A DNA stretch of 64,000 bases from assembly GCF_053078305.1 (NCBI RefSeq), contig NZ_CP166879.1. One strand, 5' to 3'. A program made the position numbers and the translations under genes. Shown here piece after piece: positions 14,650 through 51,260 of the stretch. Each line of letters begins with the position of its first letter. Positions within the stretch are counted from its first letter, which is position 1. The notes below the pieces were generated by a model. That model saw only the letters and a program-made list of their open reading frames with translations. It searched no databases and was not told the DNA's origin.

Positions 14650-15792
14650 ATGACAAATAAACACCCATCATTGTTTTCTCCTTTTATGCTGACAGAAAAA
14701 ATAAAGCTACGTAATCGTATCGTTATGGCTCCTATGACGACCTGGTCAGCGAATCCTGATGGAACCATCTCTGAGCAAGAACTCGAATTTTATAAACGCC
14801 GCTCACAAAATGTTGGTTTAGTAATAACAGGATGTACCTATGTCACGCCAAGCGGCATTGGGTTTACTCATGAATTTGCCGCATATGACGACCGTTTCAT
14901 TAACAGCCTTGAAAAGTTAGCAGCGGCAGCCCAAAGTGGGGGTGCTCCGGCTATTTTGCAGATTTTCCACGCCGGTAATAAAGCCATCCCGGAGCTTGTA
15001 CCAAATAACGATGTTATTAGTGCCAGCGCATCAAGCGTAAAAACTGGTGACTTTATGAAGAGAGTGGTACAAAGCAGGGAAATGACTGAAAACGAAATTC
15101 AGGAAACCATTAGAGCATTCGGAGATGTCACAAAAAGGGCGATTAAAGCAGGTTTTGATGGCATTGAACTTCATGGTGCGCACGGATTCCTTCTACAGAA
15201 TTTCTTCTCCCCACTATTTAACCAGCGTAATGACCGATGGGGAGGAGATCTCGAAGGACGTATGCGCTTCCCGCTGGCCGTATTACAGGAAGTAAAAAAT
15301 GTAGTCTATGAATATGCGACAAAGCCCTTTGCCATCGGTTACAGAATATCTCCTGAAGAATCTGCAACAGGGGGGCTGCGGATAGAGGATACTTATAAAC
15401 TCCTTGATCGGCTCATTTCATCCGGTATTTCGTATATACATACCTCGCTGGTCAGTATTAACGATAGCTACCCTGTTGAGTCGCCAAATGGCCCCCGAAC
15501 TATTGAATTGATTTTAAATCATATTGCAGGCAGAGTGCCGGTAATCGCTGCAGGTAAAATACGCACACCGTCTCAGGCTCAAGAAGCAATTTCCACTGGC
15601 CTGCCACTTGTTGCAATCGGTAAAGGGCTGGTGATAAATCCAGAATGGGTGACTTTAGCTGAATCAGGTAGAGGCCATGAAATTCAAACAACCCTTAATC
15701 CACAACTTGTTCCTGAATTAACCATTCCGGATAAACTATGGGATCAAATTCAGGCATCGAAAGGAACTGGCTGGTTTCCGTTAATGGATTAA
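14650..15792 (+). CDS. NADH:flavin oxidoreductase, Old Yellow Enzyme family
   Basis: 380 aa; OYE N-terminus (LFSPFMLTEKIKLRNRIVMAPMTT), HGAHGFLLQNFFSP active-site region. Confidence 0.8.
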   Translation: MTNKHPSLFSPFMLTEKIKLRNRIVMAPMTTWSANPDGTISEQELEFYKRRSQNVGLVITGCTYVTPSGIGFTHEFAAYDDRFINSLEKLAAAAQSGGAPAILQIFHAGNKAIPELVPNNDVISASASSVKTGDFMKRVVQSREMTENEIQETIRAFGDVTKRAIKAGFDGIELHGAHGFLLQNFFSPLFNQRNDRWGGDLEGRMRFPLAVLQEVKNVVYEYATKPFAIGYRISPEESATGGLRIEDTYKLLDRLISSGISYIHTSLVSINDSYPVESPNGPRTIELILNHIAGRVPVIAAGKIRTPSQAQEAISTGLPLVAIGKGLVINPEWVTLAESGRGHEIQTTLNPQLVPELTIPDKLWDQIQASKGTGWFPLMD

Positions 15793-16265: not shown

Positions 16266-16367
16266 ATGAAAGAGAATAAAGTACAACAAATCAGTCATAA
16301 ACTGATTAATATCGTTGTTTTTGTCGCAATTGTAGAATACGCCTATTTATTTCTCCATTTCTATTAA
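16266..16367 (+). CDS. ykgR: small membrane protein YkgR (33 aa)
   Basis: ATG at 16266 encodes MKENKVQQISHKLINIVVFVAIVEYAYLFLHFY with single hydrophobic helix; not in supplied ORF track (below length cutoff). Confidence 0.65.
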   Translation: MKENKVQQISHKLINIVVFVAIVEYAYLFLHFY

Positions 16368-16701
16368 TAACGGCAATAAACTGTTCACTTCAGTGATATT
16401 TAAAATATGCATCCTCTCCCTTTTTGTAAGTAATTATTATATCCGTGGGAGAGGAATACACGCTGTCAGGTAATCAATCATACTGCGATAAATCATCGGC
16501 CAGTAAAGTGGAGATAACCTCCATTCTCGAAAAATCCATACTCTCAGCGAAACTATCATCAATCACTCATCCAGGCGTTTATGGGAGCGTCGCCAATGGC
16601 TGTTAACAATGCCAGAGTTCCCCGTTGAGGAAATTCCACATACCACTAATGGTCACAGGGATTGGGTGTTGAAATGATCCGGATGAGCATGTATCTTTAT
16701 G

Positions 16702-16719
16702 GTTATGTTATAACATAAC
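16702..16719. promoter_or_regulatory. Zur box (zinc uptake regulator operator) upstream of ykgM
   Basis: perfect 18-bp palindrome gttatgttataacataac centred ~20 bp upstream of ykgM start; matches Zur operator core TGTTATnnATAACA. Confidence 0.7.
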
Positions 16720-16730
16720 AGGTAAAAATG

Positions 16731-16994
16731 ATGAAGCCCAATATCCATCCTGAGTATCGTACTGTGGTGTTCCACGACACCAGTGTTGATGAGTACTTTA
16801 AAATCGGCTCGACTATCAAAACAGACCGTGAGATTGAGCTGGATGGCGTAACGTATCCGTACGTAACAATTGATGTCTCTTCGAAATCGCACCCGTTCTA
16901 TACAGGGAAGCTGAGAACAGTGGCATCAGAAGGAAATGTTGCACGATTCACCCAACGTTTTGGTCGTTTTGTTAGCACGAAAAAGGGGGCGTGA
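16731..16994 (+). CDS. ykgM: 50S ribosomal protein L31 type B (zinc-independent paralogue)
   Basis: ORF 16728..16994; [18 protein letters not shown]... lacks the CxxC zinc ribbon of primary L31; Zur box upstream. Confidence 0.9.
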
Positions 16995-17134
16995 TGAAAG
17001 TTCTTAACTCTCTTCGTACCGCAAAAGAACGCCATCCAGACTGTCAGATTGTGAAGCGAAAAGGACGGCTATATGTGATTTGTAAATCTAATCCACGTTT
17101 TAAGGCCGTTCAGGGTCGTAAGAAAAAACGTTGA
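16994..17134 (+). CDS. ykgO: 50S ribosomal protein L36 paralogue (46 aa)
   Basis: ATG overlapping ykgM stop (TGATG); encodes [46 protein letters not shown]; not in ORF track. Confidence 0.85.
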
Positions 17135-17203
17135 TTCAAAATTCGACGGATTAACGATATTTGTCTGATTAATAATCAGACCGGATTAATGTTGGTGTAT
17201 TTA

Positions 17204-17395
17204 TTACACCAGCATTAATTTTCCTGGGGATGTATCTTCCTGTTCATTTAAGGTCAACTGCCTGACGTTTCTCTCCGAATATTCCATTATATTAATGTTG
17301 ACTTGTTGACCAGCTTCGCCCCTGTATGCTGGCATCAACCCTCTTTTAGACTGAACACGCCACTCAGTTTCCTCCCTTTGCGACGCAGCCTGCAT
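17204..17395 (-). CDS. small hypothetical ORF (possible ykgL-like)
   Basis: 63-aa ORF only; position matches where a small gene lies between ykgO and ecpR in E. coli; no motif support. Confidence 0.2.
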   Translation of the reverse strand: MQAASQREETEWRVQSKRGLMPAYRGEAGQQVNINIMEYSERNVRQLTLNEQEDTSPGKLMLV

Positions 17396-25677: not shown

Positions 25678-25709
25678 CCCCGCCAGCGATAATAGCGGGG
25701 CTTCGTTTT
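25678..25709 (+). terminator. intrinsic terminator after ykgJ
   Basis: hairpin ccccgc-cagcgataata-gcgggg followed by cttcgtttt. Confidence 0.5.
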
Positions 25710-25854
25710 CAGGGACAACAAAACCCGAAACTTCTTGTATTTGCCAGCAACAATGCCTCTCTTCTGTAGCGTTCTTCGGATCTACATCATCCTGAAGTAG
25801 CGCGATATACTCACTGACTATCTGAATCAGAATATAAAAAGCAATGTTTTTAAC

Positions 25855-25890
25855 CTATAAAAATGGCGCTGTATTTGCGCCATTTTTATC
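25855..25890. terminator. bidirectional intrinsic terminator (3' of yagU)
   Basis: hairpin ggcgctgtatttgcgcc flanked by A-run and T-run. Confidence 0.5.
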
Positions 25891-25900
25891 ATTCAATGCA

Positions 25901-36093: not shown

Positions 36094-36366
36094 TTATGAA
36101 GCATCATTTTTACTGACTGGTGTTAATTTTGCTATCATATAAACTCTGTTCTTAAAAAACGCGCCCAGAATTTTATATGATTTCCCTTGTTTTTCTGCCT
36201 GTAAAGAAATTTCTTTTTCAGTGCTGTCAATGGTTGAACCGACGGCAGTAATCGTTTTGGCGACGCTACTGAATGATAATAAAGACAGTGTAACAACAAC
36301 AATTAAAGAACAGATAGTATTCACGCTAATTCTCCTGACAATTGAGAGGATGAGTTTTATATACAT
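36094..36366 (-). CDS. small secreted DUF1471-like (YjfY/BhsA-type) protein
   Basis: 90 aa; N-terminal hydrophobic signal, then ITAVGSTIDSTEKEISLQAEKQGKSYKILGAF pattern typical of DUF1471 stress proteins. Confidence 0.45.
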   Translation of the reverse strand: MYIKLILSIVRRISVNTICSLIVVVTLSLLSFSSVAKTITAVGSTIDSTEKEISLQAEKQGKSYKILGAFFKNRVYMIAKLTPVSKNDAS

Positions 36367-47914: not shown

Positions 47915-50900
47915 TCAGAAGGTCACATTCAGTGTGGCCTGACCGTTATACCCTTCAGCGCTGCTGCCGCTGACGCTGTGGGCATAACCGGCCTGAACGC
48001 CCAGGGTGATATTTTCCCGGACACGGGCTTCCAGTCCGGCCTGCAGGTCCAGTGACGTGCCATTCCGGGACGGTGAGAACGTCATGTTACTGCCGGCTGC
48101 AGCTGTACCCATGCTCATGTCCCCCCGGGAGCTGAAGGTGCGGATAACAGAAGGTTGTACCCACCAGTTCACAGGCAGTTCACTCACACCGTGTTTTGTA
48201 CTGTCGCGCAGGGTGTCACGGGATGAGGTGCCTTCACCAAAGGTCATATCGTTGTGGCTGCCCAGACGGAAACCGGCACGCACATGTTGTGCACTGCCAT
48301 ACCCGAACTTCACATAACCGGCGTTATCCTGGCCGTCATCCAGGGAGAGTCCCTGCCAGGTGTACTGCAGTTGCGGCTCCAGCATCAGATTGTCAGTGAT
48401 ACTGAAGGGCAGACCGGTTTCCAGCGAACCCAGCCAGCCCCACCCCCGGGCGCGGAAGTCGTTATTGTCCGTTGACGCTTTCATGCTGTGGCGGGTTCCC
48501 AGGGCCACAATGTCAGCCCACAGGCCGGAGGATGTATGTGTCAGATTCAGGTATCCGCCAAGGCTGCCGGCATCATCCCGGACCGTGCCGGCACGGGAGG
48601 CGTCATCATCCTTAACATCAACGGAAGAATGGCCTGCAGCACCATATATCCCTGCGGTCACAGACATACCGGCAACCTCTGTTCTCAGCAGGTCACCCTC
48701 CAGGCGGACGAAGCCATAGCTGCCGCTGCTTTCCGGCGTGGCCCCACGGGCAATACCGCCGTTGTTATCGTGACCGAGATGGCCGCCCTGAATGCTGAGA
48801 CGGACGCTGTTATTTTCACCGTTTACACCGGTCTGATGGCTGCGTGAGCCTGCCAGAATCCGGTCATAGTCCATTGCCTGTGTCAGCATGGAGGCATACA
48901 GGGGGACTTCTGCACGATAAGCATTTTCACTGCGCAGATACCAGCTCTCATCACTGTCCCGGTTGAGGGAGTAGTTAAAGGCACCGGCCTGCAGCCTGTT
49001 CCCCTGGACAAAGGCCCCTTCCTCCGTGGTGGCACCGTTAATGGCTTCCACCACCTGAATACCCTTACCGCTGGTCGCCAGCCCCGACGCACTGTTGCCA
49101 GCGTTCACCAGGTTCAGGATGGTTTTTCCGGTTGCCCTGCCACCGTCAATGACCAGTCTGTCAGCATTGTTCTGTGCCATATCCGGGCGTACACGCAGGC
49201 TGATGGTGCCATTCTGTCCGTTCAGGTTTTTCACTTTCAGGGTTGCCGGTACGAACTTCCCTGTGCGGGTGGAGGTGAAATGAATCTGTCCGGCATGGCT
49301 GAGGTCATCCACCACCGACTGCACCGTGGCGTTATCGGGGATATTCCAGGTGGCACCGGAGGCGAGAGTGACATTCGTGGGGTCAATGGCACCGTTCAGC
49401 ACAGTGCTGCCGGTCAGCTTCAGGGCTGTACCGCGCTGAGCAATGACATCCGTGGTGACGGTACTGTCGTTCAGCGTCAGCGTGCCTTCATTCAGGTTGA
49501 CGGCTTTCTGGGTGAGTGTGGTGTTGCTGACAGTGAGTGTGCCACTTCCTGATTTTTCCACGCTGCCGTTACCGGTGAGAGAGCCTCCCTGCAGGAGTGC
49601 ATCGCCTTCACGGATGGTCAGGGTATCGTTGTTCACCGTCTTCCCGGAAAGGGTAAGTATGGCGCCGTTATTCAGCGTGGTGGTGCCCGCCAGTGTGCCG
49701 CCCCTGGCGGTGAACAGTCCGCCATTTACCGTGGTATCCGTGGCCGTATCACCGGCGTTCAGCGTGAATGAACTGCCTTTTTCCAGCATCAGGGCATCCG
49801 CCTGACCGCCTCCGATACTGAATGCCTTTCCGTCGCTCCGTGTACCACTGACAGCGGCACCGGAATCGGCCAGCAGTACACCGCCATTCCCCATGGATAC
49901 GGTGGTGGCGGCACCACCGTTGCGGACATCCAGCGTTCCGCCATCATCCACACGGGTATTAGTGGCTGTGTGTCCGCTCAGCACATCCAGACGTCCGCCA
50001 TTTTCCAGTACGACATTATCAGCTTTACCCTCCACAACAGAGAATGCTCCCTGGCGGTTTATGCCGGTAACGGTTGCAGCCGTACTGGTAACCAGTGCGC
50101 CGCCCTGCTTCAGGGTGACATTCGTGGCTGTACCACCGGCGTTCACCTGCAGTTTGCCTTTCTGGTTAACGGTGGTGAAATCCGCCAGACCACCTTCCTT
50201 GACAATCTGCCAGCCGTCACTGTTTACAACCGTGTCAGAGGCTGTGCCTCCGTTGTGCACATACTGGTAACCGCCATTCAGTGTGGTATCCAGCGCATGC
50301 CCGTGTACCGTCTGGTCGCCGCCGGCATAAACCACAGTGGTATTTGCTGTTCCTTCAGCAGCCACAATCTGACGACCATTTTTATTGATAGTGGTACGTA
50401 CGGCATTTCCGCGAACAAACTGCCCGGTATCACCATTTTCTGCATCTGGTCCCCCTTCCGCGCCGGTATTCACAACCGTGTCGGTTGCCATTGCGCCGGA
50501 TTTGACGGCCTGCCAGCCCTTCTCATTAATGACGGTACCCGTTGCAATCCCGCCTTCATGTACCCACTGCTCACCGCCGTTCAGAGTGGTGTTCACTGCC
50601 TGCCCCTGAAGGCTCTGTCCGCCTCCGGCACTGATAACCGTGTCTGAAACACTTCCGCCGGGATTCACTCTCTGAAGACCACCACTGGTGACAGTCGTTT
50701 TGTTGGCTGTACCGCCATCCTGTACCCATTGACCGCCGGTATTGGCCTCATTGTCCGGCCCGTACTCCAGCCCGGTACTGATGGTCATTCCGTTGGTCAT
50801 ACCGAAGACAATCTGGTTGTCATGATTTGTCAGTGTTCCGCCGCTCACGGTTTCTCCCGCCTGTACAACCGTGTCAGCAGCCAGTGCCGGGACTGATGTG

Positions 50901-51034: not shown

Positions 51035-51214
51035 CAGCTTTTCCTTAGATTGAGGGTGAATAAAAAAGCCGGTACCCACAAACGTGGATACCGGCAGGTA
51101 AAGGGTTACAGTGCCGGAGGTCCGGCTGTGGGAGTTTCTGAATTGTGGTTCTGTTGTTCCCTGAATGTCTTTCTGTACGTATCTGTGCATGTTACTGACA
51201 AAGGTTATTATTAG

Positions 51215-51260
51215 CTTATCGATCGATATAAACGATCGATAAAATAGGTATCGATCGTTT
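51215..51260. promoter_or_regulatory. agn43 phase-variation switch: three Dam GATC sites within the OxyR operator
   Basis: GATC at 51221, 51234 and 51253 in the sequence tcgatcgatataaacgatcgataaaataggtatcgatcg, ~180-225 bp upstream of flu start. Confidence 0.75.

Follow-up and report, generated by a model that had tools for sequence, protein, structure and literature searches.

Assignment of a perfect 18-bp palindrome and a type B L31/L36 gene pair to the Zur-repressed ykgM-ykgO operon of Escherichia coli

In Bacillus subtilis, ytiA (rpmEB) encodes a Zur-regulated L31 paralogue that contains no cysteines; it is derepressed when Zur loses its zinc, and its product displaces the zinc form of the protein from ribosomes. 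The ykgM-ykgO operon of E. coli K-12 is reportedly covered by the 2003 work of Panina, and the ykgM site is said to have been the basis of the original prediction. The K-12 operator, PL31p, shows cooperative, dimer-of-dimers binding of Zur in electrophoretic mobility shift assays (EMSA), with an apparent Kd of 0.025e-18 M2, the tightest of the Zur regulon; the protected region measures roughly 30 bp, and repression by Zur in vivo amounts to 560-fold (PMC4219657). The (Zur2)2-DNA crystal structure of Gilston et al. (PMC4219657) is the source of the skeleton RNNNYRNNRYNNYRNNNY and of the motif TGWNAYRWTATAWYRTNWCA that are applied below. Aseev et al. found a chromosomal ykgM-lacZ fusion to be silent in the wild type and almost 1000-fold more active in the presence of zur::kan or of the zinc chelator TPEN (PMC7297116), while a calprotectin study in E. 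coli Nissle reported an induction of more than 1000-fold (PMC12279244). The ykgM promoter is already in use as a biosensor for zinc and calprotectin (PMC12279244, PMC10410751). At the ykgM-rpmJ2 pair of Yersinia pestis, the Zur footprint overlaps the −10 element, and both binding in EMSA and repression of lacZ have been shown (PMC2706843).

The window considered here, that is, the whole analysed stretch of 64,000 nucleotides, carries a locus that is almost certainly the E. coli ykgM-ykgO (rpmE2-rpmJ2) operon together with its Zur operator. A 1-kb query taken around it finds a match in 5081 of the 5426 complete E. coli genomes, in which the corresponding features are annotated as ykgM (type B L31), ykgO (type B L36) and ykgL. 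The best-matching genome, at 99.6% identity, has ykgR upstream and ykgL plus ecpR-ecpABCDE downstream. The coordinates of ykgM (16731-16994) and ykgO (16994-17134) agree with the RefSeq annotation of this nearest genome; in the list of open reading frames, the L31-like frame ends at 16994 and the L36-like frame at 17134. Compared with K-12 MG1655, the segment 16666-16858, which comprises promoter and operator, is identical base for base, and the coding regions differ by four substitutions, all of them synonymous; upstream of 16666, substitutions and one 1-nt indel are found. The assignment draws on the sequence identity of operator and proteins with those of K-12, which have been characterised experimentally, on conservation across species and on family membership, and no observation contradicting the explanation as a Zur operon was found. 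The zur gene itself is absent from the 64-kb window. The locus is the textbook Zur-repressed ykgMO operon, already known. Since the operon of this strain is intact and its operator is identical to that of K-12, the published regulation data should transfer directly.

The operator is a perfect 18-bp palindrome, GTTATGTTATAACATAAC, located at 16702..16719 (no strand assigned), which was found by script and by motif scan and is identical to the PL31p operator of K-12. The first-pass annotation had claimed such a palindrome, and a script check bears this out: two arms of 9 nt, directly adjoining each other, make the sequence identical to its reverse complement, and the symmetry stops at 16701/16720. 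Read in the window together with its flanks, the region is TGTATCTTTATG GTTATGTTATAACATAAC AGGTAAAAATGATGAAGCCC. Because each arm is 9 nt long, a repeat search with a 10-nt minimum did not pick up the palindrome at 16702-16719. It is the only perfect palindrome of at least 16 bp in the window; by first-order Markov shuffling, 0.27 palindromes of at least 18 bp would be expected per window. The length by itself is only mildly unusual, and the significance of the palindrome comes from its sequence and its position. At a threshold of 14 bp or more, the window holds three palindromes in total, compared with 4.2 expected by chance; two perfect 14-bp examples, AAAGAAATTTCTTT and CCGTGCCGGCACGG, lie elsewhere, at 36203-36216 and 48583-48596.

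As regards the sequence of the site, the 20-mer Zur box at 16701-16720 matches the structure-based motif TGWNAYRWTATAWYRTNWCA at 19 of 20 positions, with one mismatch, and is the only match to it in the window at up to two mismatches (0.15 expected). The skeleton RNNNYRNNRYNNYRNNNY is satisfied by the palindrome at 18/18 positions. Two interleaved one-dimer sites of the form RNNNYxxxRNNNY can be recognised, at 16702-16714 and 16707-16719: the sites of dimer 1 are 16702-16706 and 16710-16714, those of dimer 2 are 16707-16711 and 16715-16719, and the central TATA of the box occupies 16709-16712. The classical 23-bp Zur consensus, GAAATGTTATA-N-TATAACATTTC, returns zero matches in the window at up to three mismatches, its best match having six mismatches at 16702-16724, in a shifted register. 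It fits poorly because the ykgM operator is even-centred and the older consensus odd-centred, and the structure-based motif describes the ykgM site better.

Conservation was followed in a scan of one genome per species, which gave 80 loci ranging from Escherichia to Serratia, Photorhabdus, Vibrio and Pseudoalteromonas. In all 80, the 60 nt preceding the L31 paralogue contain a Zur box with 0-3 mismatches, as compared with 5/4199 (0.1%) of the control windows from the same loci that match as well. The distance from the end of the box to the start codon ranges from 9 to 29 nt and is mostly 11-13 nt, and an L36 paralogue is situated 3' of the L31 paralogue at every locus (80/80). Across six Escherichia sequences, the 18-bp palindrome is invariant while flanking bases vary, the changes being T to C at position 16700 and, at 16728-16730, ATG to ATA. 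As other Escherichia have ATA in place of the upstream ATG at 16728, the start codon of ykgM is 16731 and not 16728. Within E. coli, the stretch 16688-16733 is found without any change in 2989 records and with a single differing base in 1804. Collectively, the K-12-identical operator, the motif match, the conservation and the published K-12 data on Zur support the control by a Zur box that had been claimed from the sequence; the finding named in advance as contrary to it, a lack of zinc-dependent regulation, did not emerge from the experiments already carried out on the identical K-12 sequence (PMC4219657, PMC7297116). As a separate observation, the one-genome-per-species scan had as its best matches E. 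albertii, at 95%, and a strain labelled 'E. coli', at 92% (loci L003 and L004), with no E. coli match at 100%; the species representative may lack ykgM, or the scan may have missed the match.

The two genes downstream of the operator encode type B ribosomal proteins. The first, ykgM (rpmE2; 16731..16994, plus strand), specifies the Cys-less bL31B of 87 residues, which is recognised by Pfam Ribosomal_L31 (PF01197; 8.9e-25, 87.1 bits) and passes the type B model NF002462 of NCBIfam, whose cut-off is 86, with 122.9 bits; the K-12 RpmE control remains below that cut-off at 59.6. The second, ykgO (rpmJ2; 16994..17134, plus strand), specifies bL36B of 46 residues, recognised by Pfam Ribosomal_L36 (PF00444; 4.7e-19, 68.6 bits) and passing the type B model NF002021 with 91 bits against a cut-off of 70, below which the K-12 RpmJ control remains at 45.7. 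That the genes form an L31/L36 paralogue pair, as proposed earlier, is therefore confirmed by both the Pfam and the type B NCBIfam models, with the RpmE and RpmJ controls below their cut-offs. Both proteins are identical to their K-12 counterparts. In the solved E. coli ribosome 6i7v, chain D7 equals YkgM and chain C5 equals YkgO at all residues that were modelled.

The description of the pair as zinc-independent holds to a different extent for its two members. Of the CxC...CxxC zinc ligands of RpmE, C16, C18, C37 and C40, none is kept in YkgM: T, V, S and S stand at the aligned positions, and YkgM contains no cysteine anywhere. With all four ligand cysteines lost, zinc independence is clear-cut for YkgM on the sequence alone. 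It is less clear for YkgO, where C11 of RpmJ corresponds to H14 and H33 to F36, while C14 and C27 are kept as C17 and C30. With these two cysteines and His14 present, the CxxC...C...H zinc ribbon appears only partly lost in YkgO, and the term 'zinc-independent' rests, for this protein, on its classification in the literature.

At the junction of the two genes, the TGA stop codon of ykgM (16992-16994) shares one base with the ATG of ykgO (16994-16996). The junction sequence as read is GGGGGCGTGATGAAA, and the junction with TGA and ATG is GCGTGATGAAA. The overlap (TGATG) had been taken in the first-pass annotation as an indication of translational coupling; the 1-nt overlap at 16994 is indeed present, and it makes coupling plausible, being compatible with it but no demonstration of it. 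The literature searched contained no experimental test of translational coupling between ykgM and ykgO. The other reading, according to which ykgO is translated independently from its own Shine-Dalgarno and TGATG merely reflects compact gene packing, is somewhat less probable than coupling and must be regarded as a serious possibility. A strong Shine-Dalgarno sequence, AAGGGGG, can be read inside the 3' end of ykgM at 16983..16989 (plus strand), ending 4 nt before the ATG of ykgO, and GAGG or GGGG is found at the same place in orthologue junctions. Moreover, folding of the junction shows no unusual degree of structure (z = +0.67), which leaves no obvious masking of the ribosome-binding site; the length of the junction varies among orthologues from −4 to +18 nt, a 1-nt overlap of the TGATG type occurring in just 16/80 loci. 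Against independent translation stands the close spacing of the genes, which is kept within −4 to +5 nt in 72/80 species and favours re-initiation by terminating ribosomes. Coupled synthesis of the two proteins is retained as a plausible reading.

Upstream of the operator, a sigma-70 consensus scan finds one sigma-70-like promoter. Its predicted −35 hexamer, TTGAAA (16669..16674, plus strand), is further indicated by a TTG at a fixed distance from the box across species, and its predicted −10 hexamer, TATCTT (16692..16697, plus strand), follows after a 17-nt spacer. The hexamers match the consensus at 9/12 positions; since shuffled sequence contains 2.6 matches of this quality per kb, the consensus scan alone is weak evidence. 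Other genera carry −10-like hexamers 3-5 nt upstream of the box, such as CATAAT in Serratia and TATAAA in Pseudoalteromonas. Between the predicted −10 hexamer and the palindrome there are 4 nt, and another 11 nt separate the palindrome from the start codon of ykgM. It is predicted to span the transcription start site (TSS), from roughly −3 to +16 for a start near 16704, and only the Zur footprint of about 30 bp, not the palindrome itself, would reach the −10 element. The earlier statement that the palindrome overlaps the ykgM promoter is therefore correct with regard to the predicted start site, but not with regard to the hexamers, the nearer of which, the predicted −10, lies 4 nt away. No mapped TSS for E. 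coli ykgM was found in the literature searched; we infer the exact promoter hexamers and start site as well as the occlusion mechanism in E. coli. Directly after the palindrome, a Shine-Dalgarno-like AGGT can be read at 16720..16723 (plus strand), 7 nt before the ATG of ykgM, and orthologues have a purine-rich GAGG or AGG at the equivalent place.

It has also been reported that the B paralogues take over in stationary phase even when zinc is present (PMC7363858), which means that zinc may not be the sole input. A zinc-independent second input, such as a growth-phase signal received in the conserved part of the promoter that precedes the Zur box, would, if true, explain this replacement of bL31A and bL36A in the presence of zinc. 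It is considered unlikely. An ungapped comparison of the 80 loci, anchored on the box, shows conservation of the box, of a few bases immediately in front of it and of the TTG at the −35 position; besides these, no conserved block is seen among the 80 loci, and the sequence points to no specific second regulatory site.

Repression by Zur at the palindrome is taken as the basis of the proposed mechanism. When zinc is sufficient, two Zn-loaded Zur dimers would bind 16702-16719 cooperatively, on opposite faces. With the palindrome placed between the −10 hexamer and the Shine-Dalgarno, over the transcription start, bound Zur would keep RNA polymerase from initiating. As zinc falls, Zur would leave the operator, and transcription of the operon would become several hundred-fold stronger. 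A single mRNA would then give rise to bL31B, with no zinc-binding cysteines, and to bL36B, the synthesis of the two being presumably linked by the 1-nt stop/start overlap and the internal Shine-Dalgarno. In ribosomes, these two proteins take the place of bL31A and bL36A, the forms that contain zinc, and bL31B in addition represses the expression of rpmE.

It is very improbable that the palindrome acts mainly as RNA, that is, as a stem-loop of the 5'-UTR beside the Shine-Dalgarno that controls mRNA stability or translation. A TSS near 16704 would indeed place the palindrome in the transcript, with a 7-bp hairpin directly before the Shine-Dalgarno. However, this hairpin is weak (−6.4 kcal/mol; z = −0.78), and 52/200 shuffles fold as well. 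In other species, the right arm often loses its complementarity, as in ...AACAAAACA, with 7-8/9 pairs, whereas the pattern of Zur contacts is kept, and no compensatory changes are found across species. Furthermore, binding of Zur to the identical K-12 DNA has been published (PMC4219657). The hairpin was therefore rejected as the function of the palindrome, its fold being no better than that of shuffled sequences and the pairing of its arms being lost without compensation.

Less probable still, and effectively refuted, is the view that the palindrome is there by chance, or serves another regulator such as Fur, with zinc control coming from elsewhere: although its length alone is not decisive, with 0.27 perfect 18-bp palindromes expected per 64 kb, the box stands at the same position in 80/80 species versus 0.1% of the controls, it stays invariant within Escherichia while neighbouring bases vary, EMSA and expression data have been published for the identical K-12 sequence, and a Fur box is rejected, since the palindrome departs from the 19-bp Fur consensus at nine or more positions and the nearest approach to that consensus in the region, with seven mismatches, is the 19-mer at 16727-16745 in the start of ykgM.

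Turning from the Zur operator to the 3' side of the operon, a candidate operon terminator is seen at 17163..17221 on the plus strand: it consists of one stem-loop at 17163-17181 and a second one next to it at 17183-17221, after which comes a short U run. The segment folds at −29.2 kcal/mol with z = −6.76 relative to shuffles, an inverted repeat was also found there, and three substitutions in K-12 leave the stem intact. A simple terminator scan made no call downstream of ykgO; we infer the terminator function of these stem-loops from the predicted RNA fold and the inverted repeat. In Rfam, no RNA family was matched in or near the ykgM-ykgO operon. The matches above the gathering score in the window were the IS102 RNA (51055-51258, minus strand, 253 bits) and IS009 (25697-25895, minus strand, 183.6 bits).

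The gene ykgL, at 17163-17395 of the window (minus-strand open reading frame 17204-17395), converges on ykgO, carries a 1-nt indel that shifts its frame relative to K-12 and is flagged as a pseudogene by RefSeq in the nearest genome. In K-12, the 3' end of ykgL runs through the candidate terminator hairpins of ykgMO. In a published RNA-seq study, ykgL is reported to be induced together with ykgM and ykgO (PMC12279244); this co-induction could be an antisense 3'-UTR or read-through signal from ykgMO. On the other side of the operon, ykgR, the gene of a small membrane protein of 33 residues, is located at 16266-16367 (plus strand), about 360 nt upstream of ykgM and on the same strand; the motif scan of the window detected no Zur box near it. 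Upstream of ykgR, at 14650-15792 and further upstream, the window has an intact NADH-dependent flavin oxidoreductase and, judging by the nearest genome, also a hydrolase, LysR regulators, aldo/keto reductases and fdeC. The corresponding region of K-12, with the ykgP and eaeH pseudogenes only (locus L002, 3217-4001), looks like a degraded version of it.

The distribution of the locus within the species provides some further observations. About 6-7% of the complete E. coli genomes (345-366/5426) have no match to the ykgM-ykgO locus. In E. coli UTME-3 (locus L085, 2746-4087), an IS3-family element abuts a 5'-truncated ykgO, annotated there as 'rpmJ', and both ykgM and the operator are gone. All 16 'plasmid' records with ykgM-ykgO (16/16) are from E. 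coli. As judged by record size and source labels, some of them look like F-prime-type plasmids of laboratory K-12 strains, the others are records of 1.3-4.9 Mb filed as plasmids, and none look like natural mobile copies.

The locus is a standard example of zinc-sparing ribosome remodelling, and its value in the present case is that of a correct annotation alone, by which no open question is advanced. Its closest relative is the ykgM-ykgO operon of E. coli K-12, to which it is identical in promoter and operator (16666-16858), in both proteins, in gene order and at the TGATG junction; it differs from K-12 in the frameshifted ykgL and in the oxidoreductase and hydrolase cluster upstream of ykgR, where K-12 has the ykgP and eaeH pseudogenes. 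The ykgM-rpmJ2 locus of Y. pestis has the same gene pair, with the Zur box likewise between the −10 element and the start codon (PMC2706843). However, the Y. pestis box, GATGTTACATTATAACATA, differs in sequence and is not a perfect 18-bp palindrome. With the other Zur operators of E. coli (znuABC, zinT and pliG), the ykgM operator has in common the two-dimer recognition motif based on RNNNY (PMC4219657). Among these four, it is fully symmetric and shows the highest affinity, its apparent Kd being about 330-fold tighter than that of znuC (PMC4219657). The ytiA gene of B. subtilis is the more distant case: unlike ykgM, it is associated with the Gram-positive Zur box consensus and has no linked L36 paralogue.
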